DNA from: Promethearchaeia archaeon
GTDB lineage: Archaea > Asgardarchaeota > Lokiarchaeia > Sigyniarchaeales > SOKP01
Length of the DNA stretch: 64,000 bases
Reading direction: 5' to 3'
Assembly: GCA_029856045.1 (NCBI GenBank)
Contig: JAHQWG010000028.1
Location: 288,001-352,000, forward strand
The notes beneath the pieces were generated by a model, which did no database searches, was not told where the DNA came from, and saw only the letters and a list, made by a program, of their open reading frames with translations. The first letter of the stretch is position 1. Every line of letters begins with the position of its first letter. A program made the translations under genes and the position numbers. Shown one piece after another: positions 10,598-41,351 of this stretch.

Positions 10598-12025
10598 ATG
10601 ATTTTTATGTCAGATTCAGCTAAAAACATAATAAAATTTCTTTGTGATCGGTTTTTTGAATTAGATTATTATCCAACCAGTTTAAGTGCACTATTGGATT
10701 TACCAATAGAGAAGTTGAGGGATTTTACACAAAAAGATATCTCTAAATTTAACAAGATAGATATTAAAATATTACGTGATTTAACCACAATTAGTGAAGA
10801 AGAGTTTTTAGAACTTGCAACGCTAACAAACATGGATTCAAATGTATTAAATAATGCAAAAATTGCCGCTACTTTAATAGCAAATGCATGGACTAAAAGA
10901 AAAGAATATATAAAAAAATCTCAGAGTAAAATCGTTGTAGCAGGTCTTGATTATGCAGGAAAAACATCTCTTATTAATAGATTAATGCATGATCATACTC
11001 CTGGGGATGTGATTAATTTAGAGCCTACAATAGGCGCAAATATCCAAGAATTTGAATCGGATAATTTAAACTTGATAATATGGGATCTTGGAGGGCAAAA
11101 AAGTAATTTAGAGGAATATATCCAAGAACCAGAGAAATTTTTTATCCAGCTAGATGTTTTATTTTTTGTATTTGATGCTCAAGATGATGTTCGCTATGAA
11201 GTTGCTCTTAAATATTTAAATGATCTCTTAGAAATTCTTGAATTTATAAAAGAAATTCCCCATATCTTAATTCTTATAAATAAAGTAGATCCTGACATCG
11301 AAAAAGATCCCGATTTTCAAATCAAACTTGAATATTTATCTGATAAAATTACAAGAATCTTTCTTAAGAAACCAAAAAATGTAAACTATGAAATAATACA
11401 AACAAGTATTTATAATATTTATTCCCATGAGCCTGAAATCGTAAAAACCATAAAAAATGTTTTTTCAAAAGATATTATTGCGAAGAAAGAAAAAAAAGAA
11501 ATGGAAATTGATGAAAAACTTCAGAAAATATTGGATATTAATTTTAAATTAATGGATAAAGTTGTTTCTGAACTCTCTGACATAAAAAGAGTTTTATATA
11601 AATTAGCACCATCAGATCTTAAACAATCAATCTATGCTGTTCCTTTTGATAAAGTTCCCTCTGAATATGTATCAACTCCCAAAAAAATCGCAAAAAAGCC
11701 TATAATTGCAAAAATTGAAAAGGAAAAACCTAAAAAAAAGAAAAAACCTAAAAAACCAGGGGTTCCTACTAAAATTCCTAAACCTATAAAATTATCTCCA
11801 CCGGCATCCAAAATTGAAGAAACAATGGATAAATTAAGTCAAAAATTTGAAGAAAGCGAACAAAGAATGGCATTGGAAAATTTAACACCACCCAAACCTC
11901 CTCCAAAAGCACCTGCAATTCCATCAACAACCCCACATAACATTATTAATCCTCGCAGCCAAATAATGTCAGAGTTAAAAGATATCTTCAAAAAAAAGGG
12001 AATCGTGAAAAAAGAAATTGTCTAA
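10598..12025 (+). CDS. Arf/Arl-like small GTPase with N-terminal helical extension and Lys/Pro-rich C-terminal tail
   Basis: G1 GLDYAGKT, G2 EPTIG, G3 WDLGGQ, G4 NKVD, G5 TSIY; tail PPKPPPKAPAIP...PRSQIMSELKDIFKKKG. Confidence 0.85.
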   Translation: MIFMSDSAKNIIKFLCDRFFELDYYPTSLSALLDLPIEKLRDFTQKDISKFNKIDIKILRDLTTISEEEFLELATLTNMDSNVLNNAKIAATLIANAWTKRKEYIKKSQSKIVVAGLDYAGKTSLINRLMHDHTPGDVINLEPTIGANIQEFESDNLNLIIWDLGGQKSNLEEYIQEPEKFFIQLDVLFFVFDAQDDVRYEVALKYLNDLLEILEFIKEIPHILILINKVDPDIEKDPDFQIKLEYLSDKITRIFLKKPKNVNYEIIQTSIYNIYSHEPEIVKTIKNVFSKDIIAKKEKKEMEIDEKLQKILDINFKLMDKVVSELSDIKRVLYKLAPSDLKQSIYAVPFDKVPSEYVSTPKKIAKKPIIAKIEKEKPKKKKKPKKPGVPTKIPKPIKLSPPASKIEETMDKLSQKFEESEQRMALENLTPPKPPPKAPAIPSTTPHNIINPRSQIMSELKDIFKKKGIVKKEIV

Positions 12026-24826: not shown

Positions 24827-25195
24827 TTAGACAATAACATTTTTGACTGTTTCCCTAAAATCGTTAATATTTATTGGTTTTGCAATGTAAGTATCGAAAC
24901 CTGCTTTCAATATACGTTCTTTATCACCTTTCATCGCGAAAGACGTGACAGCAATAATTGGAATGTTTTTATATTTTTCAAGTTTACGAAGTTCTTTACA
25001 AATATCGATTCCACTCATATCTGGTAGTTGAATGTCTAAAATTATTAGGTCTGGATTATCTGACTTTAGAGATTCAAAAGCTCGGGCACCATGCGTTTCT
25101 GCTACAATTTCAATATCAAGCATTGTATTTAGGACTGCTTTAAACAATTTCATGTTTTTTTCATTATCTTCCACAAGAAATACTCGTTTTTTCAT
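24827..25195 (-). CDS. single-domain response regulator (DivK-like)
   Basis: VEDN, LIILDIQLP, AVTSFAMKGDKERIL.AGFD.YIAKPI. Confidence 0.92.
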   Translation of the reverse strand: MKKRVFLVEDNEKNMKLFKAVLNTMLDIEIVAETHGARAFESLKSDNPDLIILDIQLPDMSGIDICKELRKLEKYKNIPIIAVTSFAMKGDKERILKAGFDTYIAKPININDFRETVKNVIV

Positions 25196-25622: not shown

Positions 25623-26483
25623 ATGAATAATAAGAAAACTGAAGAGATGGAAAAATATGAAAAAATGACTGGCAAACACGCAATTTGGCGTGGTGTAATA
25701 ACTGAAGGATTTAAAAAATGGCAACGAGGAGAAAAAATTTATGATAGATTTAAGGAGAGAATAGCTCTATATGTAGCTAAAGAAACTAAAGAAGAATGGC
25801 AGAATTTCATAAATAATTCAAAATATACTTCTGTTTCTAAGCTTGTGAGAGATGCAGTAAATAATTTCATTGAAAAAAAATTAAAAGTAATAGATTATAA
25901 GAATTATAGTAAAGATAATCAGCTTAGAGATCTTTCAGATATCTCACATGTTTTAAAAGAAGCATTAACTTCAATAAAAGGTTTCTCACAATTATTAATT
26001 GAAAATTATAAGGAAGAACTCAATGAGGAAATCATTTTAAAAATAAAAGAAATTTTTGATAAAAGCATCTTCCTTGAAAACAAGATTAATGAATCTTTAG
26101 AATATTCTCAAACTAAAAAATCACAATACGACATTTTATTAATTGAAGATGATATTTCAACAATAAAATTATTAACATCATTTTTTGAAAGGAAAGGTTA
26201 TAGTTGTAAAGGTGTCATAAGTGGTTCTAGAGGATTGGATGAATTGAAGAGAAATATTCCAAAAATAATTTTATTAGACATTATTTTACCTGATATTAAT
26301 GGATTTGAAGTTTGCAAAATAATAAAATCTAATAAAGAATATCAAAATATTCCCATCTTTCTATTAACTGCTGTATCAAGTCTAAAAGTTGAGCATCTTA
26401 TTAAAAAAGCAAAAGTAGATGGTTATATCTCAAAACCTTTTGATTTTTCGGATTTTAATATAATATTGGAATACTTACATTAA
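25623..26483 (+). CDS. RHH-DHp-REC protein: ribbon-helix-helix, HisKA helices with His, receiver domain; no HATPase
   Basis: ERIALYV.KETKEEWQNF...YTSVSKLVRDAVNNFI (RHH pattern); ISHVLKEALTSIKGFSQLL; IEDD/LLDIILPD/LTA/KPF. Confidence 0.75.
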   Translation: MNNKKTEEMEKYEKMTGKHAIWRGVITEGFKKWQRGEKIYDRFKERIALYVAKETKEEWQNFINNSKYTSVSKLVRDAVNNFIEKKLKVIDYKNYSKDNQLRDLSDISHVLKEALTSIKGFSQLLIENYKEELNEEIILKIKEIFDKSIFLENKINESLEYSQTKKSQYDILLIEDDISTIKLLTSFFERKGYSCKGVISGSRGLDELKRNIPKIILLDIILPDINGFEVCKIIKSNKEYQNIPIFLLTAVSSLKVEHLIKKAKVDGYISKPFDFSDFNIILEYLH

Positions 26484-26486
26484 TTT

Positions 26487-28493
26487 TTAATCTTTTAAAA
26501 TGGGAAGAGAAAAATAAAATTTACTTCCTCTATTTCTTCCTTCTGATGCCATCCAGATATTTCCCTCGTGTAAATCAATAATCTTTTTCGCAATATATAG
26601 ACCGAGCCCTGTACCCTCAATTCTAACATCCCAACCTTGACCATATCTTTCAATTTTTCCAAATTGTTTAAATAATTGATTCTTTTCCTCAGCGGAAAAC
26701 CCAATTCCATTATCTTCTATTGAGATTATGAAAAAGTTAGATTTTACTTCAGAAAAGATTTTAATTTCTCCTCCAGGAGGAGTGTAATTAATTGCGTTTA
26801 ATAATAAATTTGAAAAGACTTCATAAATCCGCTGTTTATCAAAAGTTGTAATTAAATTATTATCAATATTTAAGGAAATAGATTGGTTTCTCAGCTCTAA
26901 CACAGCTTGCATTTCTTTTAAGCAGGATTTGATCAATTTTGATAAATTTCCTTGTTTTAAAATTAATTTTAATTGTCCAGATTCTAATTGGGATGATTCT
27001 AGGAGAGAATTAACTATATTATCAAGGCGCAGACATCCTTGTTTAATTTCTTTTAAAATGGATATTGTCTTATTATCATATTTCTCTTCAAATTTTGTTA
27101 ATAAAAAGTCAGAGAACCCCTTAATTGAGACAAGAGGAGTTTTCAATTCATGGGAAGTTCTATTTAGTAAATTGGTTTTAAATTTATTTATTTCACTTAG
27201 TCGTATATTTTGCTCCTTTAAATTTTTCTGAATTTGCCATCTTTGTTCTTCAACCTTAATGGCACCACAAACTAAGGACAAAATCAAATGTTCTTGGTGT
27301 GAAATAGCAGGATTTTCTCTTTTTAAAATACAAATAAAACTATTAAATTTATCTTTAGACTTAATTAATCTTCCAAATCCTCCTTTTATGTTGTATTTAA
27401 TAATAAAAGGATCAGTTTTTGCATATTGGGTTTCATTTAGATTTATAAATGTTTGTATAATATTCTGTTTAAGCTCGAATGTTTCATTTGTAAAATAATT
27501 CTTTTTAAATTCTTCCTTATTGCAATTAAAATTATTATCATCACTAGAAATGATTTGATATATTTTATTTCCATTTTGCACCCTTTTTCGAATATATAAT
27601 ACACTTTCTGCTTTACTCAATTTCTTTACTGTTTGAATTAGAGTTTTAATATTCGATTGGAAATCTGGTGTAAACTTTAAAAAACTTAAATTTATTTCAT
27701 AAATTAAATTTTCATAAGTCTTTCTTTCATTAATATCTTGATAAGTTGTTTGAACATAAATATTATTTCCGAATTTTATTAAAGAGCTCTGGAGACTTAC
27801 CCAAATCTTTTGTCCATCTACATTTAGTAATTCAACTTCAATAGGACTAATTACTCCTCCTTTAATTATAGTTTCAAATCGATCTTTAAGTAGCAGTAAA
27901 ATTTCTTGAGGATATATATCAAGTTGGTTCTTAGTTTTACCAACAATTGTATCCTTTCTATATCCAAATAATCGTTCCGTTGCAGAGTTACAATCAATAA
28001 CTCTTCCTTTTAAATTTGCTAAAATGATGGCGTAGGGAGAATTTTCAAATAAGAATCGATATTTCGCTTCAGATTCTATTAATTTTTGCTCAGTTTCTTT
28101 ACGTTCAGTGATTTCTAACACAAATTCAACTGCTCCAATAATATTATCATTATTATCTTTCACTGGAGAAGCTTTTACCTTCCATACCCTTCCATCGGGA
28201 GTAGTTTGTTCTGCTTCATGAGATTGCCTTGTTTCAATAGTTTTCAGCACAGGGCAATTAGCACATGGTGCATTTCTCTGATGCCATATCTCATAGCAAT
28301 AGCCACCAATTAATTTATCAGTTGTTAGACTCACAGATTCAGAAGCGGCTTTGTTTGCCCACAAAATTTTTAATTCGTTATTATAATATAATATAAGCTC
28401 AGAAATACTGTTCAAAATAGGAGAGTTAAAAGTAATTTTAAGATTTCCTTCATTCTTTGAACTCGCATTATTTTCGAATTTTTGATTTTGCAT
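26487..28493 (-). CDS. sensor histidine kinase PAS-PAS-GAF-like-HisKA-HATPase
   Basis: CYE...CANCP PAS; SHELKTPL; NLLLNAINY; DNGIG; FGKIERYGQGWDVRIEGTGLGL. Confidence 0.9.
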   Translation of the reverse strand: MQNQKFENNASSKNEGNLKITFNSPILNSISELILYYNNELKILWANKAASESVSLTTDKLIGGYCYEIWHQRNAPCANCPVLKTIETRQSHEAEQTTPDGRVWKVKASPVKDNNDNIIGAVEFVLEITERKETEQKLIESEAKYRFLFENSPYAIILANLKGRVIDCNSATERLFGYRKDTIVGKTKNQLDIYPQEILLLLKDRFETIIKGGVISPIEVELLNVDGQKIWVSLQSSLIKFGNNIYVQTTYQDINERKTYENLIYEINLSFLKFTPDFQSNIKTLIQTVKKLSKAESVLYIRKRVQNGNKIYQIISSDDNNFNCNKEEFKKNYFTNETFELKQNIIQTFINLNETQYAKTDPFIIKYNIKGGFGRLIKSKDKFNSFICILKRENPAISHQEHLILSLVCGAIKVEEQRWQIQKNLKEQNIRLSEINKFKTNLLNRTSHELKTPLVSIKGFSDFLLTKFEEKYDNKTISILKEIKQGCLRLDNIVNSLLESSQLESGQLKLILKQGNLSKLIKSCLKEMQAVLELRNQSISLNIDNNLITTFDKQRIYEVFSNLLLNAINYTPPGGEIKIFSEVKSNFFIISIEDNGIGFSAEEKNQLFKQFGKIERYGQGWDVRIEGTGLGLYIAKKIIDLHEGNIWMASEGRNRGSKFYFSLPILKD

Positions 28494-28742: not shown

Positions 28743-29618
28743 TTGGTGATTTCAATTTTGAATAATGAAAAAAAAAATAGTGAAATGGAACAATATGAAA
28801 AAGAGACAGGAAAATATGCTGTTTGGCGTGGTATCATAACTGAAGGATTTAAAAAGTGGAAAAGAGGAGAAAAGATTTATGATAGAGATAAGGAGAGAAT
28901 ATCACTCTATATATCGGAAGAAACTAAAAAAAAATGGCAAAATTTTATTGAAAGTAGCAAATATTCTTCAATTTCAAAATTGATAAGAGATGCTATGGAT
29001 TTTTTTATTAATGAGAAATTAAGAGGAGGTATTGATGAAAAACTTAAAAAATCAAGACCTTTTAAATCAATTACTGATATTTCCCATGATTTAAAAGAGG
29101 CTTTAACTACCATAAAAGGATTTTCACAGTTATTGCTTAATAACTATAAGGATGATATAAAAGAAGATGTATTATCAAAAATTAAGGAGATTTTTAATAA
29201 AAGTATATTTCTTGAAAATAAAATAAAAGAAGTCTTGGAAAAAGGAGAAAATAGAAAGACACAATATGACCTTTTATTAATTGAAGATGACCCATCGACT
29301 ATAAAATTATTAACCACGTTTTTTGAAAGTAAAGGTTATTCTAGTAGAGGGGTAATTAGTGGTTCTAAGGGAATAGAAGAATTAAAAGTAAATGTTCCAA
29401 AATTAATATTATTAGATATAATATTGCCAGATATAAATGGATATGATGTTTGTAAAATTATAAAATCTGATGAGAATCTTAAATATATTCCAGTTTTTTT
29501 CTTAACGGCAATTCCAAGTTCAGAAGTTGAGAAAAAAATTAAATTTGCTGGTGCAGATGGATATATTTTGAAACCATTTGATTTTAGTGATTTTGAAATT
29601 TTATATACATATCTATAA
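28743..29618 (+). CDS. RHH-DHp-REC protein, paralogue of 25623-26483
   Basis: Same architecture: TGKYAVWRGIITEGFKKW, ERISLYI..., ISHDLKEALTTIKGFSQLL, intact REC. Confidence 0.75.
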   Translation: MVISILNNEKKNSEMEQYEKETGKYAVWRGIITEGFKKWKRGEKIYDRDKERISLYISEETKKKWQNFIESSKYSSISKLIRDAMDFFINEKLRGGIDEKLKKSRPFKSITDISHDLKEALTTIKGFSQLLLNNYKDDIKEDVLSKIKEIFNKSIFLENKIKEVLEKGENRKTQYDLLLIEDDPSTIKLLTTFFESKGYSSRGVISGSKGIEELKVNVPKLILLDIILPDINGYDVCKIIKSDENLKYIPVFFLTAIPSSEVEKKIKFAGADGYILKPFDFSDFEILYTYL

Positions 29619-29765: not shown

Positions 29766-31073
29766 ATGGTTATAGGCATAGCATTATTTAGTTGGGATAA
29801 GAAGATGGGTCCGGTTTTAGAGATTAAACATCCTGAAAATCTTGATTTATCACAAAATTTAATTAATAAAATATATATGACTCATGCTTATAGGCAGGAA
29901 AATCAAAATGAAGAGTTAATGGAAATTAATCTGGAGAATAAAATTATACTTAGCTACTGTGATATGTCTAAAGTTGCAAAATTTGGGTATGAAATAATTA
30001 TTCTTATTGTTCATGAGAAGGAGAAAATACATCTTAAAAATTTAAAATCCAAATTATTTGAATTTGCGAGAGAAGTGTTAAATAAACCTAAAATTGAGAG
30101 ACATAAGTATTTTTTTGAAAATCTCGATTTGTTTTTTAAAGAAACATTAAAGAAAAAGATATTATTAGTTGGACGAGCAGCTACAGGAAAATCTAGTATT
30201 AAGCAAGTTATTTTTGAAGGAAAGATGCCACAGGAGTTATTATCTAATCCCCTTGAGCCAACTCGTGGTTTAACACCCTCTGTTTATTCATGGTTAGATC
30301 TGGATTTGGGTATTTTCGATTCAGCTGGTCAAGAACTGGATTATTTATTAGATGATAAAAATGAACAAACCTTAGCATTCGAAAATACTGATATTATAAT
30401 ATATATGTTTGATTACCTAACGTGGGTTGAAAATAACGAAATAATAATAAAAGATATCAGAAAAATTTCAAGAATTATTAAACAAGAGTCTTATAATGCT
30501 AGGATTATATTATTTCTACATAAAATTGACTTAATTAAGGAAGAAAATAGAGAACAAAACATAAAAAATATCCAGCGAGAAATAAAAGAACAATTGAATT
30601 TACAGATTTATTTTACAAGTCTTTATCCAAATTTAATTTATAATACTTATAATGCATTTTATGAGATTTTGAGTAATTTTTCCAAAGAGACAATTTATTT
30701 TAAAGAAATTTTGGATGAAAAAATTAAAGACAGTTCAAAATCTATGTGTTTTATAACTAATCAAAACAGTAGTATAGTTGTTCAGACAATGTCTAATGAT
30801 TTCAATTTTAAATTAATCAACCAAATTCATAGATTAATTGCTCAATTTGACCAATCATTTGAAGACATGTGTATGAATGATAATATCGATTATATGATAC
30901 TTTCAAGTTTGAAAAATTTTAATATTATTATGAAATTTCTTAACCTCTCGAATTATAATCTTAAAAATTTAATTTTAATCTCTGAAATAGCTAGTATCAA
31001 TCAATTAATAGGATTTTGTGAGGAAATTAAAAGTACTTTGAATAGATATTTTTATAAAGATATTCAACTATGA
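29766..31073 (+). CDS. Rag/Gtr-like GTPase with N-terminal longin/uDENN-like and C-terminal roadblock-like domains
   Basis: IALFSWDKKMGP N-terminus; KKILLVGRAATGKSSIKQVIF, EPTRG, DSAGQ, HKID, FTSLY. Confidence 0.8.
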   Translation: MVIGIALFSWDKKMGPVLEIKHPENLDLSQNLINKIYMTHAYRQENQNEELMEINLENKIILSYCDMSKVAKFGYEIIILIVHEKEKIHLKNLKSKLFEFAREVLNKPKIERHKYFFENLDLFFKETLKKKILLVGRAATGKSSIKQVIFEGKMPQELLSNPLEPTRGLTPSVYSWLDLDLGIFDSAGQELDYLLDDKNEQTLAFENTDIIIYMFDYLTWVENNEIIIKDIRKISRIIKQESYNARIILFLHKIDLIKEENREQNIKNIQREIKEQLNLQIYFTSLYPNLIYNTYNAFYEILSNFSKETIYFKEILDEKIKDSSKSMCFITNQNSSIVVQTMSNDFNFKLINQIHRLIAQFDQSFEDMCMNDNIDYMILSSLKNFNIIMKFLNLSNYNLKNLILISEIASINQLIGFCEEIKSTLNRYFYKDIQL

Positions 31074-31082
31074 GAATCTAAA

Positions 31083-32588
31083 ATGGGTAAGAAGATAATT
31101 TTCGTTGGACCGCCTGGAGCGGGAAAAACCACCTTAAGAAAAGTTTTTTTTGAGGGAGAATCTTCTTCAAAATTATTAGATTATGCATTAGAGCCTACAC
31201 ATGGTAAAGAATCAGTTATTCTTCAGTTAAGTGAGGATGTTGGAGTGTTTGATCTAGCAGGTCAGGAAAATACAAGGTGGTTTGAAACAGATGATAAAGA
31301 AATTTTCTACGATACAAAAATTCTTATAGTAGTTATTGATATTACAACAGACCATGAAAGAATTATAGAGTTTATTAACAGAGTTATTAAAATTCGAAAT
31401 GAATTAACACCGACTGCATTTATATATATATTAATTCATAAAATTGATTTGGTAGCACAAAAAACAATCAAAGCAATAAAATATAAAATTTCTGATGTTA
31501 TTGGTGAGGAAAAGTCTGTTAAAATTGCATTTACAAGTATTCAGAAAGTATATTTCCCCTCAACATTTTCATTGTTTATGGATATCTTAGATACATGTAT
31601 AAGTGAAAGGGTAACTCCTGAAAGAATTAATTTGAATCTACTTCAAAACACTATTGATTTTTTATATGAATTACAAAAGAGTGTTTTAATTTCGAAAGAT
31701 GATTTACAGATAAGATTAAAAGCTCCTGATGAAATGATTGATTCTATAAGCAAACTATTGAGTAATAAAGGACATATTGATGTTTCAAAAATAAATGATA
31801 GAACAATTTTTAGTTTAACTGATAAAGGTAAAAATTATTTTAAAGAAATTTTAAATAAATTTTCTTTGCAAAAATTGATTAAATTTGAGAAAGAACATTA
31901 TAAGACAGAAGCCGCTTTAGGGCCAAAAGTTCCTCCATATTTAGGTTTTTTGGTGGCTGATAAAGATGGAAAAACAATAATAAATGTAGAAATATTTGAC
32001 GGAGCTTTTGATTTAATCTTAAATGCTGAAGAGGGAGCAATGAAAACTGATTTTGAGTTAATTCCTATGTTCATTAGTGCTTTAGAAAAATTCTCGGAAG
32101 AAATAAATATAAAGGAATTAGCGGGTTTTCAATTAAAGGGAACAAATATTGAAATGCAAACTTTATCTTTTGAATTATATACAGTTACTCTTTTTATAAA
32201 TCCAGAAACAAATGTTAAATTTTTTGAATATATAATCAGAGAATGGTTTGAAAATCTTTTTGAAATACATAGAAAAGAACTTGAGTCTGCTATTAAGACT
32301 GGTTATATGACTCAAGTTTCTAAATTAAATCAAGAAGGGAGAGAATGGTTGGACAATCTTAACCAAAGATATAAAAATATGGCTATGAACTTGGAGATTT
32401 TTGATTTTGATCAAGCTAAAGTACTTTATCATCATATAGATGATATATCTGCAGATATTAATTTTAAATATACTTTAGTCTTACAAAAGATCAAAAAATT
32501 AAAAATAGATTTAATGAAGGCGATATTAGTAGAAGATTTTCAAGAAGTAAAAGAAATTGCCGGTAAGATTCGAGAAATTAAAGTTTAA
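31083..32588 (+). CDS. Rag/Gtr-like GTPase with wHTH, longin/roadblock-like domain and UVR-like C-terminal helix
   Basis: GPPGAGKT, EPTHG, DLAGQ, HKID, FTSIQ; SKLLSNKGHI...FSLTDKG wHTH end; YLGFLVADKDGKT; AILVEDFQEVKEI. Confidence 0.78.
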   Translation: MGKKIIFVGPPGAGKTTLRKVFFEGESSSKLLDYALEPTHGKESVILQLSEDVGVFDLAGQENTRWFETDDKEIFYDTKILIVVIDITTDHERIIEFINRVIKIRNELTPTAFIYILIHKIDLVAQKTIKAIKYKISDVIGEEKSVKIAFTSIQKVYFPSTFSLFMDILDTCISERVTPERINLNLLQNTIDFLYELQKSVLISKDDLQIRLKAPDEMIDSISKLLSNKGHIDVSKINDRTIFSLTDKGKNYFKEILNKFSLQKLIKFEKEHYKTEAALGPKVPPYLGFLVADKDGKTIINVEIFDGAFDLILNAEEGAMKTDFELIPMFISALEKFSEEINIKELAGFQLKGTNIEMQTLSFELYTVTLFINPETNVKFFEYIIREWFENLFEIHRKELESAIKTGYMTQVSKLNQEGREWLDNLNQRYKNMAMNLEIFDFDQAKVLYHHIDDISADINFKYTLVLQKIKKLKIDLMKAILVEDFQEVKEIAGKIREIKV

Positions 32589-32720
32589 ATATAGGTTTTT
32601 ACTTTTTAAGCAATAATTTTTATTATATTCTACCAAATTTCATTAAGTAGTAAAATATTTTAAATTATTAAATTAATTTATAAAAAATTAATTCCCAAAA
32701 ATTTCGTTTGATCTAAGAAT

Positions 32721-34619
32721 TTGATTGATTTTAGAAATAATGATTTAGATTTCCCGATAATTGTTAGTCCGAATCTAGGGATTCCTTGTTTTTTAAAATA
32801 TGGTAATAAAAGAAAAAAGAGAGATTATTCTTTCAATTTATTAGTAATCACAAAAAAAATTGAATCTAGTGCTATCTTAAAAACATCTCTAGAAGAAGCA
32901 ATACAAATCATCCCTCTTAAAAGATTGAAAATTGAGAAAGAATCTAAAGATAATTCCCTAAAAAATATTGCTATTCGAGGCATTCCAATAGATTTAAAAC
33001 TTGATAAAATCGAGAACACCGATATCCTACCAATAAATCGGGTAGCTTTTCTTGAAGATCAGTATTATTTGAATCCTCAGGATTATCTTATTAAATTTAA
33101 GACATTTGGAAATTTGAATAAATTTTTTAAAGTATCTGTATCATTTGCAGAAAATTCTGAGGTAAAGACTATCTTAAAACATCAAAATTTTATAATGTTC
33201 GATATCGTTCATAAAATCTCAGATAAATTAAACCGAATAAATTATCATTCACTTGTGTTAACTAAACAAGATTGGAAAAATTTTACGTTTGTTCAAGCGA
33301 CAGATATTCATCTCGCCAAAAGAAATGACCTAATTTTAGAAAAATTAAAGACAGATATATCAAAAAGAGTTTCGACTAAAATTAGAGATTTAATTAACGG
33401 ATTAAATAAAAAAGAGATTACACCAATAGAAAATAGATTAATAAATCCAAATAATCAACTTAGAAAATTTATAAAAATCATAAATAAAAAAGTCCAAAAA
33501 AACCAAATTGACTTTTTAGTTTTTACAGGAGATATTATAGACTTCTGTTTAATTAGTGCAATTGAAAAATTAGAAGATATGACGGATTTCAACTTTCCAA
33601 ATACAAACTGGAAGATTTTTCAAGATATAATTTTAAACAGAATAGATTATAATAAACCTGGGATGATAACCGGTGAAGAATTACTCTGTCCTATCTTCAC
33701 TATTCCTGGAAATCATGATTTCCGCTTGGGACATTATGATTTAAGATGGGGATTTATGTATAGAAAATTAGGATTAGTATTATCAGAAGCAATAATGTTA
33801 TACGATGAATGGGTTGCAGACCCAATAAGAGCACTAACTCCCTTAAGAAAATGCTTGATTAATTATTGGCAAGAAATTAATCCGGCTTTAGATTATATCA
33901 TAACTTTAGGCAATAACCACTTTATTTTTATGAACTCAGGGTATGATTCTGGCAAAGATTTTCGAGATTTCATTACGGGATTTCCATCATCAACTGGTAT
34001 GACAGATGCTCAAATAAAACTTTTAGAGAATTTCTTAAATTATAAATTTAAAGGAAATGAAAATATATTTCTTTTTACACATGGACCAATAATTAATCCC
34101 ATAAAAAAGATAAAATTTATTCAAAAACTGAAAAAAAAGATAAATGTAGATACTTTTCTTAATTTTGAGGAATTAAAAGAATCAAATTTAGCCAAAAAGG
34201 GAATCCCAGAGGATAAAAGAAATATTGATGATAAAATAAATCTCAAGTATGGAACTATTACTAATAACTGGCAAGAAATGATAAATTTTTGTAAAGATTT
34301 CTGTTTAATAGCGTTATGTGGGCATACGCACACCTTAAGAGAGTTTAGATTACAAAATCCGATTAAAAAAAGTAAAGTATTCAAATCCGTTCCATTCAAT
34401 TTGATAAAAATTGAAAATCCTGCAGCAGTATTTTTCGATGATTATTCAGAGTTATTAAAAAATCAAAAAGATATATGGAATAAGAAACCTTTTTTGTTTC
34501 AGACGCCCGCTTTGGGTTTAGGTTCTTACAAACATCCTACTATAGGTGGGGCATATAGAATAATTAAAATAAAAAAAGAAAAGATAGATTCTTTCAGGGT
34601 AAAATTTATACCAAAATGA
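32721..34619 (+). CDS. calcineurin-like metallophosphoesterase with long N-terminal extension
   Basis: DIH, GDIID, GNHD, THGP, GHTH metal-binding motifs. Confidence 0.85.
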   Translation: MIDFRNNDLDFPIIVSPNLGIPCFLKYGNKRKKRDYSFNLLVITKKIESSAILKTSLEEAIQIIPLKRLKIEKESKDNSLKNIAIRGIPIDLKLDKIENTDILPINRVAFLEDQYYLNPQDYLIKFKTFGNLNKFFKVSVSFAENSEVKTILKHQNFIMFDIVHKISDKLNRINYHSLVLTKQDWKNFTFVQATDIHLAKRNDLILEKLKTDISKRVSTKIRDLINGLNKKEITPIENRLINPNNQLRKFIKIINKKVQKNQIDFLVFTGDIIDFCLISAIEKLEDMTDFNFPNTNWKIFQDIILNRIDYNKPGMITGEELLCPIFTIPGNHDFRLGHYDLRWGFMYRKLGLVLSEAIMLYDEWVADPIRALTPLRKCLINYWQEINPALDYIITLGNNHFIFMNSGYDSGKDFRDFITGFPSSTGMTDAQIKLLENFLNYKFKGNENIFLFTHGPIINPIKKIKFIQKLKKKINVDTFLNFEELKESNLAKKGIPEDKRNIDDKINLKYGTITNNWQEMINFCKDFCLIALCGHTHTLREFRLQNPIKKSKVFKSVPFNLIKIENPAAVFFDDYSELLKNQKDIWNKKPFLFQTPALGLGSYKHPTIGGAYRIIKIKKEKIDSFRVKFIPK

Positions 34620-34705
34620 ATTAAATAAACTTATTAACCTAATAAGGAGTTCATGAAAATAAATTCAAATATTTTGAAAAAGAATAATATAAATAGATTT
34701 GAAAC

Positions 34706-35956
34706 ATGGAATTCGATATTTCTAATTATTTGATTAATTTTTCACTTAAAAAAAATTTAGATAGCTTTCTTGATGATTCCCAGAAAACTCAAGTTGATGC
34801 TTTCAAAATAAAAAATAAATCGATAAAAAAGTATATTAATGAATTTTGGACATCAAAACAGAGACAAGCATCATCTATTCATGAAATTTCATATAGAGCT
34901 TGTTTTAAAGCACAACTTCCAAGATTTTTTATAAAACTATTAACGAAGCCAAATCATATTATTTATGATCCTTTTAGTGGTCGGGGTACAACCATAATTG
35001 AAGCGGGTTTACTAAACAGAAATGTAATTTCCAATGATATTAATCCTTTAAGTGAAATTTTAACACGACCGAGATTAAATATTCCCTCTATTGATGATAT
35101 CAAAGATAGATTAGACAATATTCCGTTAAATTTGGAATTCGAAAATGAAATTGATTTATCCATGTTTTATCACGAAAAAACAAAGAGGGAAATACTTTCT
35201 TTGAAAACTTATCTTTATAAAAGAAAAATAGGAAATAAAGAGGATGATATTGATAGATGGATTCGAATGGTTACTACTAATAGATTAACTGGACATTCTA
35301 AAGGTTTCTTTTCTGTATATACTTTACCTCCAAATCAAGCGGTTTCACAAGAAAGACAAATTAAAATAAATAGAAAACATCGTCAAAAACCAGAGTACAG
35401 AGATGTGAAAAAAAGAATTATAAAAAAATCAATCTCTTTACTACGAAACCTAACTATGCAACAAAAAAAAAAATTAAGAGAAATTTCTAAAAATGCAATA
35501 TTTTTAACGAAAGATGCAAGAAATACACCAGAAATTAAAAAGAATTTGGTTCAATTAACGGTTACATCTCCCCCTTTTCTAAAAGTAGTGCAATATTCAA
35601 AGGATAATTGGTTAAGATGTTGGTTCAATTCAATAGATGCAGAAGAAATATCTAAAAAAATTACAATGGAATCTGATGTTAATAGATGGTCAAAGATGAT
35701 GGGTAATGTTTTTAAAGAATTATATAGAATCACCAAAATAAATGGATGGGTTGCATTTGAAGTGGGAGAAGTCCAGAAAGGAAAAATTAAATTAGAAGAA
35801 TATATTGTTCCTGAGGGATTAAATGCAGGATTTATCTCTAAAGGAATTGTCATTAATGAACAGGAATTTACTAAAACATCTAATATTTGGGGTATAAAAA
35901 ATAAAGAATCAGGGACTAATACAAATCGAATTGTGTTATTTAAAAAAGAGAGCTAA
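34706..35956 (+). CDS. site-specific DNA amino-methyltransferase (probably N4-C; motif order I then IV)
   Basis: DPFSGRGTT SAM motif followed later by TSPPF catalytic motif. Confidence 0.85.
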   Translation: MEFDISNYLINFSLKKNLDSFLDDSQKTQVDAFKIKNKSIKKYINEFWTSKQRQASSIHEISYRACFKAQLPRFFIKLLTKPNHIIYDPFSGRGTTIIEAGLLNRNVISNDINPLSEILTRPRLNIPSIDDIKDRLDNIPLNLEFENEIDLSMFYHEKTKREILSLKTYLYKRKIGNKEDDIDRWIRMVTTNRLTGHSKGFFSVYTLPPNQAVSQERQIKINRKHRQKPEYRDVKKRIIKKSISLLRNLTMQQKKKLREISKNAIFLTKDARNTPEIKKNLVQLTVTSPPFLKVVQYSKDNWLRCWFNSIDAEEISKKITMESDVNRWSKMMGNVFKELYRITKINGWVAFEVGEVQKGKIKLEEYIVPEGLNAGFISKGIVINEQEFTKTSNIWGIKNKESGTNTNRIVLFKKES

Positions 35957-40346: not shown

Positions 40347-41351
40347 ATGCTTGTTGATGAAATTAACATAAAATTAGTCATTTTGGGTGTTGGAAGTGTT
40401 GGAAAAACTTCAATAGTAAAATCATTTTTAGATCAAGAGATTCCAAGAATGTATATTCCAACAATTGGAAGCAGTATTGCAAGGAAGGAATTTATATTAA
40501 AAAATATTGCAATTAAAATTAATATTTGGGATATTGGTGGTCAAAAATCCTTTAATCCTTTAAACCCAGTATTTTTTACTAATGTTGATGCAGCTTTTTT
40601 AGTGTTTGATTTAACTCAACCAAAAGAAACATTACCTAGATTAGAAATTGATTATTTAGCAAATTTGTCAAAATATACCAATAAATGTATTGCATTTGTA
40701 ATTGGAAATAAATTAGATTTAATTTCAACTAAGGAAGAACTAGAGAATATTGCAAATTATTATAAAATAAAAAATGTTCCATTAATTCTAACTTCTGCTA
40801 AAACTCAAGAAAACCTACTTGAAGCATTTAATTTAATCATATTTAACTTTTTGAAGGAATGGGAGAAAGGACTTAAATCTAAACAATTTCAGGGAATATC
40901 AAATGAATTCTTGAACTTAATTAACAAAACTGAAAATCAGCTAAAAGATTTATTTGTAAATTTAGATAAGGTAGACTCAATTATGATTTCAAGTAAATCA
41001 TTACCTCAATTAACTAAAAAAAAAATTTCATCTTCTACCCCTAATTTAGATTCTGGAATTGAATTAATTGATTATGGAAGATATAAGAAAAAAATTGAAG
41101 AATTTAATAAAATAAAAGATCATATTACTGATTCATTTGATAATAAATTAACCATTATAAAAGATGTAATTTCAAGTTTAAAAACAACTCCAATAGATTC
41201 ACTTATTGATACAATTGACAAAACAATGAAACAATTAAATGATATTAAAAAAGATTTTGAATTTAACTTAGATTCCTTATTGAGTTTAGAAAAAAGTGAA
41301 CAAAATGTGAAAGAAGTAAAGAAAGAACTTAAAGAAACTGGAGGCGAATAA
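40347..41351 (+). CDS. Rab-like small GTPase with C-terminal coiled-coil extension
   Basis: GVGSVGKT, PTIG, IWDIGGQ, FDLT, GNKLD, SAKT; heptad-rich C-terminal half. Confidence 0.88.
   Translation: MLVDEINIKLVILGVGSVGKTSIVKSFLDQEIPRMYIPTIGSSIARKEFILKNIAIKINIWDIGGQKSFNPLNPVFFTNVDAAFLVFDLTQPKETLPRLEIDYLANLSKYTNKCIAFVIGNKLDLISTKEELENIANYYKIKNVPLILTSAKTQENLLEAFNLIIFNFLKEWEKGLKSKQFQGISNEFLNLINKTENQLKDLFVNLDKVDSIMISSKSLPQLTKKKISSSTPNLDSGIELIDYGRYKKKIEEFNKIKDHITDSFDNKLTIIKDVISSLKTTPIDSLIDTIDKTMKQLNDIKKDFEFNLDSLLSLEKSEQNVKEVKKELKETGGE

Follow-up and report, generated by a model that had tools for sequence, protein, structure and literature searches.

Rag-like GTPases of Asgard archaea are frequently named as precursors of nutrient signalling in eukaryotes. 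The eukaryotic Rags are obligate dimers, which form through a C-terminal roadblock-type domain. To our knowledge, neither a partner nor a pathway is known for any Asgard Rag-like GTPase. Fusions of these GTPases to longin and roadblock domains are already known and have been catalogued, among them the LGR and GXLX proteins of Promethearchaeum syntrophicum MK-D1 (Tran et al. 2024, PMC10933270); they also appear in Liu et al. 2020 (bioRxiv 10.1101/2020.10.19.343400), and an earlier re-analysis is reviewed in Dey et al. 2016 (PMC4917890). The catalogue leaves its 'X' domains unnamed, does not use the word 'winged', and reports that small GTPase genes generally lie outside operons with regulators, genome layout being of no help in matching them (PMC10933270). 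Crystal structures of Loki Rags are likewise known. LokiRagO (PDB entry 8yl2, a homotetramer) and LokiRagM (PDB entries 8zla and 9m28, a monomer) are G-R proteins of approximately 300–325 residues and, unlike the proteins described here, lack added longin or winged-helix domains; the literature searched yielded no paper on either.

Modules of kinase, roadblock protein and GTPase have precedents (PMC4316618). The Streptomyces conservon (CvnA kinase, CvnB roadblock protein, CvnC and CvnD GTPase) and the Myxococcus MglA/MglB/RomR system resemble the present locus in a conserved neighbourhood that combines a kinase, a receiver or both with a roadblock fold and a Ras-superfamily GTPase (PMC4316618, PMC3441718). 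However, the GTPases here are of the Rag type (best family Gtr1_RagA) rather than the MglA type, so that the analogy is one of logic only; the roadblock and longin domains are parts of the GTPases themselves instead of separate proteins; and each module contains two GTPases. The new elements of the locus are an operon of an LGR and a GXLX protein, the winged-helix identity of the 'X' domain, and the putative wiring to kinases. The first protein (P1) shares the LGR architecture described for MK-D1, and the second (P2) is 43% identical to WP_147663498.1 of MK-D1, labelled GXLX (PMC10933270).

Two adjacent GTPases of the Rag/Gtr type

The window, a 64-kb stretch of DNA from a Loki-type Asgard archaeon of the Promethearchaeota, contains the co-oriented open reading frames of P1 and P2, which are spaced by 9 nt, and a set of signalling genes on their upstream side. 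The features are as follows, with the evidence in brackets.

24827..25195, minus strand: stand-alone receiver (REC), 122 residues (clustering; Pfam Response_reg 1.1e-26)
25623–26483: paralog of the HisKA-like and REC protein
26487..28493, minus strand: PAS histidine kinase (ORF; clustering; Pfam of cluster members)
28743..29618, plus strand: HisKA-like and REC protein, 147 nt upstream of P1 (Pfam REC 9.9e-20, HisKA 1.6e-5, weak RHH)
29766..31073, plus strand: P1 gene, LGR (longin–GTPase–roadblock) Rag-like GTPase, 435 residues (ORF; Pfam Gtr1_RagA 88 bits; AlphaFold2 pLDDT 86.5)
29766..30125, plus strand: P1 N-terminal longin-topology domain, residues 1–120 (DSSP order; invariant residues)
30147..30680, plus strand: P1 Rag-type G domain, residues 128–305 (RagD 2q3f_B, Z-score 20.4, r.m.s.d. 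2.3, 168 residues; motifs)
30684..31064, plus strand: P1 C-terminal roadblock domain, residues 307–433 (structural alignment; Foldseek)
31074..31082, plus strand: spacer from P1 stop to P2 start, 9 nt (TGA gaatctaaa ATG)
31083..32588, plus strand: P2 gene, GXLX (GTPase–winged helix–longin/roadblock–helical tail), 501 residues (ORF; Pfam Gtr1_RagA 59.6 bits; AlphaFold2)
31083..31607, plus strand: P2 Rag-type G domain, residues 1–175 (RagD 2q3f_B, Z-score 15.2; LokiRagO 8yl2_A, Z-score 15.1, 31% identity)
31632..31868, plus strand: P2 winged helix-turn-helix, residues 184–262 (MarR 5h3r_A; ESM Atlas; weak Pfam)
31932..32300, plus strand: P2 longin/roadblock-superfamily domain, residues 284–406 (DSSP; Atlas structural matches)
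32310..32582, plus strand: P2 C-terminal helical region, residues 410–500 (four helices in the AlphaFold2 model)

The window stretch is contained in twenty DNA sequencing runs, from marine-sediment and salt-marsh metagenomes; no RNA run was among the runs found to contain it.

Gtr1_RagA (PF04670, cut-off 22 bits) is by far the top Pfam family for both proteins. P1 matches it with E 8e-25 (next family Ras, 21.8 bits) and P2 with E 4e-16 (next family Arf, 35.7 bits), as do 48 of 48 P2 homologs. Regular-expression searches located GRAATGKS at position 136, EPTRG at 164, DSAGQ at 185, HKID at 252 and YFTS at 282 of P1, and GPPGAGKT at 9, EPTHG at 37, DLAGQ at 57 and HKID at 119 of P2; FTSI at 150–153 of P2 was read off the translation. 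The P-loop, the switch I threonine and DxxGQ are thus intact in both proteins, as is HKxD, which takes the place of NKxD as G4, and the G1–G5 motif residues are invariant in alignments of 48 homologs of each protein. The top PDB sequence matches of both are all RagA/C or Gtr1/2 (a phmmer search of the PDB with P2 returned Rag/Gtr only), and the best Foldseek and VIA matches of both models are Rag/Gtr and Loki Rag structures. P1 and P2 are divergent Rag/Gtr GTPases, predicted to bind and hydrolyse GTP. These scores, motifs and matches bear out the first-pass annotation, which had described co-oriented Rag-type genes 9 nt apart, both with HKID as G4 and FTS as G5. For P2, Foldseek also gave LRRK1/2 and Roco; assignment as a Roc-COR protein was rejected, the VIA overlap being with the G domain only (residues 1–180).

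Domain architecture

The domain orders given by that annotation (longin, GTPase and roadblock in P1; GTPase, winged helix and longin/roadblock in P2) agree with the AlphaFold2 models. Residues 1–120 of P1 follow the order β-β-α-β-β-β-α-α (DSSP), with W10, G15, P23, S63, C65 and G74-Y75-E76 invariant. The roadblock domain comes directly after the G domain, and residues 129–429 together align with RagC, Gtr1, Gtr2 and LokiRagO. The best structural match of residues 129–425 is LokiRagO (8yl2_A, Z-score 20.9, 269 residues), and RagC (6nzd_G, Z-score 19.0, 280 residues), Gtr1 (6jwp_A, Z-score 18.0) and the Rag/Gtr structures 3r7w and 6s6a are also among the top matches. The best Foldseek matches are Rag/Gtr without exception and cover the G and roadblock domains together.

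The P2 model (pLDDT 72) comprises a G domain, for which LokiRagO is a near-best match, a winged helix, a longin/roadblock-type domain and four helices. The C-terminal roadblock arrangement is thus present in part, as a winged helix intervenes after the G domain and a longin/roadblock-like domain follows. This latter domain has the order β-β-α-β-β-β-α-α (DSSP) and matches Robl_LC7, LAMTOR3 and Fuz_longin clusters of the Atlas with TM-scores of 0.64–0.71. Paralogs of the longin part occur as stand-alone proteins (for example, one with 49% identity over residues 282–430); the idea that P2 arose by fusion with a free-standing winged-helix–longin protein was rejected, because the stand-alone paralogs examined carry the longin part alone. 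The C-terminal 'UVR-like helix' proposed earlier is unsupported: residues 410–501 match no Pfam family even at E ≤ 10 and form four helices in the model. The C-terminal module of P2 is found in one order only, and in 0 of approximately 225 genomes from other Asgard families.

Profiles of the P1 longin, P1 roadblock and P2 longin/roadblock domains had no significant match in the PDB, the top relevant one being dynein light chain roadblock (E 0.41). Comparison of the P1 and P2 longin-type domains with hhalign gave a probability of 33%, that of the P2 domain with the P1 roadblock gave no match, and Pfam searches with the isolated domains of both proteins gave none; these three assignments therefore derive from predicted structure only.

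The winged helix of P2 is structurally similar to MarR in its complex with operator DNA (Z-score of 13.3 and r.m.s.d. of 1.2 Å over 76 residues with 5h3r_A), to approximately 15 further MarR and PadR chains (Z-scores of 12–13), and to MarR and HTH_34 clusters of the ESM Atlas (TM-scores of 0.76–0.84). Between 4 and 11 of 48 P2 homologs weakly match assorted Pfam winged-helix families, and the window protein lies below every such cut-off (HTH_34, 16.2 bits, with 27 needed). The 'X' domain of the GXLX family can thus be named a winged helix.

Conservation of the pair and its signalling neighbourhood

In 30 related loci from named MAGs, P1 immediately precedes P2, with a gap of −8 to +38 nt (median 5) and, in seven of the loci, an overlap of the P1 stop and P2 start by 4 or 8 nt. 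Among 121 genomes of one Lokiarchaeial order, sampled independently, 31 contained both orthologs; the two genes are adjacent and co-oriented in 27 of these, from at least ten genera. P1 and P2 constitute a conserved operon that is often translationally coupled, and their synteny within one order could stem in part from shared ancestry.

The partnership is not obligatory, and each gene occurs alone in some genera. In one genus (three genomes, 98–100% complete) P2 is missing, and P1 is followed by a PAS kinase in convergent orientation. The converse applies to Promethearchaeum, MK-D1 included, where P2 is present and a P1 ortholog is lacking, the nearest match (33% identity) being 0.8 Mb away; MK-D1 accordingly differs from the window genome in having no P1–P2 operon. 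The single 'operon pair' reported for MK-D1 by Tran et al. appears to consist of two G-R proteins whose accessions follow one another (WP_147663117 and WP_147663118), and its equation with the window pair was rejected, as MK-D1 carries no P1 ortholog beside P2. No GTPase gene adjoins an LGR paralog of P1 on contig C34 of the window's own genome (49% identity), and in one genome (G181) P1 is followed by another, different Rag-like GTPase.

The strongest clue to the function of the pair is its kinase and receiver neighbourhood, which the first-pass annotation did not include. Orthologous GAF/PAS-HisKA-HATPase kinases accompany the pair in 27 of the 30 related loci and a stand-alone receiver of 121–133 residues in 26; the PAS histidine kinase and the 122-residue receiver of the window are members of these two clusters. 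The same components occur in two arrangements: either the receiver is divergent upstream of the pair and the kinase convergent downstream, or the kinase ends 6–10 nt before P1 and the receiver comes after P2. A separate LAMTOR3/Roadblock (Robl_LC7) gene lies near the pair in nine of the 30 loci. In MK-D1 a receiver gene is directly upstream of the P2 ortholog, and a HisKA-like and REC gene takes the position before the pair in the window's own genus alone (two loci). Lokiarchaeial genomes contain many kinase and receiver genes and approximately 30 Rag-like genes, an abundance that makes chance neighbours likelier. Because the pair is kept beside sensor kinases and a receiver, these Rag-like switches appear to be plugged into bacterial-style signalling, and the locus represents a conserved set of candidate partners: two co-made GTPases, PAS/GAF kinases, one receiver and, in part of the genomes, a roadblock protein resembling LAMTOR3.

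Candidate mechanisms

On balance, we lean towards a translationally coupled operon of two Rag/Gtr-family GTPases that act as one switch wired to the adjacent phosphorelay. P1 and P2 would be produced at a fixed ratio and function as a single unit, most likely joined through the P1 roadblock and P2 longin/roadblock domains in the manner of Rag/Gtr dimers. The P1 longin domain may act on a G domain as an integral platform or regulator, and the switch may serve the two-component phosphorelay as its output or modulator, by a logic akin to that of the Streptomyces conservon (kinase, roadblock protein and small GTPase) and of Myxococcus MglA/MglB/RomR. Heterodimerisation is plausible; complex prediction with full-length P1 and residues 280–501 of P2, given as alignments, yielded ipSAE values of 0.10 and 0.17 (mark 0.32), which are neutral on binding. 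If these links hold, an archaeal Rag-like switch works inside a two-component phosphorelay and not in a TOR pathway.

It is possible, if less probable, that P1 and P2 are co-expressed without a heterodimer, each assembling into separate homo-oligomers via its own roadblock or longin domain and acting either consecutively, in a GTPase cascade, or in parallel, as two branches of a pathway. The stop/start overlap and the 5-nt median gap, seen across at least ten genera, are what one typically finds for subunits produced at a fixed ratio and speak against such a separation, as does the obligate dimerisation, via the C-terminal domain, of eukaryotic Rags, whose body plan is the same. Separate assemblies are nevertheless consistent with the persistence of P1 or P2 alone in some genera and with the solitary LGR paralog; moreover, the titles of solved Loki structures describe one RagA-like GTPase as homotetrameric (8yl2) and another as monomeric (8zla/9m28), and longin-containing GTPases of MK-D1 have been modelled as homodimers (Tran et al. 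2024, PMC10933270).

The proposal that P2 is a GTP-gated transcription factor, whose winged helix would bind DNA and convey the kinase signal to gene regulation through the pair, we consider unlikely. The first-pass annotation had suggested a winged helix with a possible direct DNA-binding output; the fold is real, but DNA binding is doubtful because the domain is near-neutral (median net charge of approximately +1 among orthologs, and 0 for the recognition helix) and the recognition helix is not conserved, its exposed positions varying freely and conservation being limited to core hydrophobic positions. The absence of any Pfam winged-helix score above cut-off for the window protein points the same way, and winged helices frequently mediate protein–protein contacts. 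On the other side stand the close superposition on DNA-bound MarR, a nearly invariant wing motif (S-L-T-x-K-G-K, with K248, G249 and K250 conserved), shorter paralogs in the same clusters that combine a Rag-like GTPase with an ArsR-type HTH (289 residues), and the association of bacterial Group 3 MglA systems with a REC-wHTH protein (PMC4316618). The P2 winged helix more probably makes protein or non-specific nucleic-acid contacts than reads a specific operator sequence. Still more doubtful is the compound proposal of a two-GTPase switch that is fed by a PAS/GAF kinase–receiver phosphorelay and acts on DNA through this domain; if true, Rag-type nutrient or state signalling would have a prokaryotic forerunner that is independent of TOR and carries its own transcriptional output.

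Eukaryotic Rag/Gtr heterodimers, RagA/B–RagC/D and Gtr1–Gtr2, share with the pair the Pfam family, the HKxD form of G4 and the succession of a G domain and a roadblock-type dimerisation domain, and the whole G and roadblock body of P1 superposes on theirs (Z-scores of 18–19 over 250–280 residues). They differ in that P1 has an added N-terminal longin domain, that P2 has a winged helix between its G and C-terminal domains as well as a helical tail, and that the genomic partners of the pair, whose dimer is putative, are histidine kinases and a receiver rather than Ragulator, GATOR or TOR. Although two divergent Rag-like paralogs (27% identical) encoded together are what an A/C pair would lead one to expect, it is very improbable that P1 and P2 are the archaeal counterpart of the RagA/B–RagC/D split, ancestral to the nutrient-sensing dimer: the PDB bit scores of both are slightly higher with RagA/Gtr1 than with RagC/Gtr2 and so show no A/C-type correspondence, the C-terminal module of P2 has the narrow distribution given above, and P1 is nearer to G-R paralogs of approximately 310 residues (38–45% identity) than to P2.

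Gene pair and GTPase identity

The locus lies in an AT-rich window, with a G+C content of approximately 26% in its surroundings, and comprises two co-oriented genes.

Genes of the pair
29766–31073, co-oriented with P2: P1, an open reading frame (ORF) of 435 amino acids
31083–32588, co-oriented with P1: P2, an ORF of 501 amino acids

The spacer between them is exactly 9 nt, as the first-pass annotation had stated. That annotation had also called them a Rag-type pair, in agreement with the Pfam family Gtr1_RagA, which is the best small-GTPase match for both proteins, with scores far over the cut-off. In sequence searches of the Protein Data Bank (PDB), which contains crystal structures of Lokiarchaeial Rag-like proteins, the top 21 matches of P1 and all 20 matches of P2 are RagA/C/D and Gtr1/2. 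The G4 motif HKID and G5 motif FTS described earlier were found in both proteins, together with the P-loop, the switch I threonine and DxxGQ. These motifs are invariant among 48 homologues of each protein, and with the set complete, both look like functional GTPases. P1 and P2 share only 27% identity, and P1 is nearer to paralogues of approximately 310 amino acids comprising a G domain and a roadblock domain (G-R), so a recent tandem duplication is excluded.

Two T runs (TTTTT, TTTTT) at 32589–32620, immediately 3′ of the P2 stop codon, would fit an archaeal oligo-T terminator ending the two-gene unit. Further 3′, positions 32721–35956 encode a calcineurin-like metallophosphoesterase (632 amino acids) and an N6/N4 DNA methylase (416 amino acids); the former occupies this position after the pair solely in the genus to which the window belongs (L001 and L002).

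Domain architecture of P1 and P2

AlphaFold2 models were run on homologue alignments. The P1 model is confident (pLDDT 86.5, pTM 0.70) and that of P2 is weaker (pLDDT 72). None of the longin and roadblock domains was detectable by sequence profiles alone.

Domains in the AlphaFold2 models
P1, residues 1–120: longin-topology domain (β-β-α-β-β-β-α-α)
P1, residues 128–305: G domain
P1, residues 307–433: roadblock domain (α-β-β-α-β-β-β-α)
P2, residues 1–175: G domain
P2, residues 184–262: winged helix
P2, residues 284–406: longin/roadblock-superfamily domain
P2, residues 410–500: four helices

The G domain and roadblock of P1 jointly fit the Lokiarchaeial Rag-like GTPase LokiRagO (Z-score of 20.9 over 269 residues with PDB 8yl2_A) and human RagC (Z-score of 19.0 over 280 residues). 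Yeast Gtr1 and Gtr2 likewise superpose, and Rag/Gtr chains occupy the head of the Foldseek list throughout. Rag chains align over the G domain and residues 284–406 of P2, with a differing mutual orientation; the latter domain resembles Robl_LC7, LAMTOR3 and Fuz-longin clusters (TM-score 0.64–0.71). The UVR-like helix proposed for the P2 C terminus is unsupported.

The middle domain of P2, previously read as a winged helix-turn-helix, is a genuine winged helix, superposing on DNA-bound Escherichia coli MarR with a Z-score of 13.3 and an r.m.s.d. of 1.2 Å over 76 residues, and on many MarR and PadR chains with Z-scores of 12–13. Its ESM Atlas model matches MarR/HTH_34 clusters (TM-score 0.76–0.84), and several P2 homologues have weak Pfam matches to winged-helix families. 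DNA binding is possible but doubtful, because the domain is near-neutral in charge and the exposed positions of the recognition helix differ among orthologues, only the wing motif SLTxKGK being conserved.

Short paralogues (approximately 260–290 amino acids) with a Rag-like G domain and an ArsR-type HTH occur in the same clusters (L079:86–952 (+), Pfam HTH_5 at E = 1.4e-3; similar matches in L003, L023, L025, L027, L051, L055, L057, L063, L065 and L068), which argues that fusion of GTPase and predicted winged helix is recurrent within this order. Stand-alone proteins of 190–270 amino acids share homology with the longin/roadblock domain of P2 and the first helix after it (L084:362–937 in genome G208, 49% identity; L082:568–1353 in G009, 26%; both over P2 residues 282–430), and are possible alternative dimer partners.

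Conservation of the pair and its kinase/receiver neighbourhood

In 30 loci from named metagenome-assembled genomes (MAGs), a full-length P1 orthologue (47–94% identity) ends right upstream of a P2 orthologue, with a gap of −8 to +38 nt (median 5) and a stop/start overlap in seven. Of 121 genomes of the order sampled independently, 31 contain both orthologues; the two are adjacent and co-oriented in 27 (at least ten genera) and split over different contigs in three, and in one (G181) P1 precedes another Rag-like GTPase instead. The partnership is non-universal: the genus g3 retains P1 alone, Promethearchaeum retains P2 without a P1 orthologue, and a longin–GTPase–roadblock (LGR) paralogue in the window's genome has no GTPase neighbour. 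In one close relative (approximately 89% identity; L001:3686–4672 / G178:C207:19393–20376), the P1 orthologue matches only up to residue 330, with an in-frame TGA, which reflects either disruption of the gene or a misassembly.

Clustering of all flanking ORFs in the 30 loci revealed GAF/PAS-HisKA-HATPase kinases flanking the pair in 27 and a stand-alone receiver (REC) of 121–133 amino acids nearby in 26. In about 20 loci, a divergent REC lies 140–250 nt upstream of P1, with one or more convergent kinases right after P2. In six others (L009, L011, L016, L017, L018 and L020), a same-strand GAF/PAS histidine kinase ends 6–10 nt before P1, and four of these (L009, L011, L018 and L020) have the REC downstream of P2; L009:10–7075 and similar loci look like a co-oriented kinase-P1-P2-(kinase)-REC string. 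In the window, the orthologous genes lie upstream of the pair.

Orthologous signalling genes in the window
24827–25195, upstream of the pair: REC
26487–28493, upstream of the pair: kinase

They are interleaved with two paralogues that each combine HisKA-like and REC domains, one of which ends 147 nt before P1. In Promethearchaeum syntrophicum MK-D1, a REC gene is immediately upstream of the P2 orthologue. Retention of the same components despite rearrangement argues for a functional link between the kinase/receiver genes and the pair.

A coiled-coil protein (282–412 amino acids) is near the pair in 15 loci and a Roadblock/LAMTOR3-like protein in nine. The latter, a Roadblock/LC7 protein of 151–155 amino acids, lies approximately 2 kb upstream, past the coiled-coil gene (L008:1128–1595 (−) and eight other loci; Pfam Robl_LC7 2.5e-10 and MAPKK1_Int/LAMTOR3 2.7e-6).

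The evidence best supports a reading in which P1 and P2 would be produced together as components of a single GTPase switch, coupled to the neighbouring kinase/receiver phosphorelay. The P1 roadblock and P2 longin/roadblock domains would provide a heterodimer interface, a model that needs the fewest assumptions in view of the Rag body plan and translational coupling.

Relation to known systems and distribution

The locus is a real, conserved feature built from protein families and architectures described before. Asgard Rag-like GTPases and longin/roadblock fusions are established (PMC4917890, a review covering a previous re-analysis of the genome of Lokiarchaeum; bioRxiv 10.1101/2020.10.19.343400; PMC10933270). 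Tran et al. (PMC10933270) described LGR proteins, listed the MK-D1 orthologue of P2 as ‘GXLX’ with its winged helix unnamed, found GTPase genes in general outside operons with regulators, and presented a Rag-like heterodimer model for one operon pair. That pair appears, from consecutive accessions, to be two G-R proteins; its identity with P1–P2 was rejected, as MK-D1 lacks the P1–P2 pair. Liu et al. (bioRxiv 10.1101/2020.10.19.343400) proposed that Asgard ‘mTOR-pathway-like’ parts act via two-component systems, and the conservon and MglA/MglB/RomR are bacterial precedents for kinase/receiver–roadblock–GTPase modules. New in this analysis are the LGR–GXLX operon, the recognition of the winged helix in P2 and the conserved association with kinase and receiver genes.

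All close homologues of P1 and P2 are from Promethearchaeota/Lokiarchaeia MAGs and MK-D1. The non-GTPase part of P2 was found in 54 of 68 genomes of one family and 6 of 7 of a second family in the same order, and in none of approximately 225 genomes searched from the phylum's other families. Gtr1_RagA matches number 30 in the window's own 3.34-Mb genome, 25 of them over the cut-off; besides P1 and P2, the window carries two others, at 10928–11416 and 40371–40757 (ORFs of 475 and 337 amino acids). Contig C3 of this genome carries three Rag-like genes inside 10 kb, and C3:14903–16330 (L081:10903–12330) encodes a 476-amino-acid protein in which a Gtr1_RagA G domain is joined to a region weakly matching a Folliculin-type longin (PF11704, E = 1e-4). 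Contigs that bear these Lokiarchaeial genes (L027, L036, L041, L051 and L055) are in MAGs named Patescibacteria, Bathyarchaeota and Odinarchaeota, probably reflecting mis-binning rather than gene transfer.
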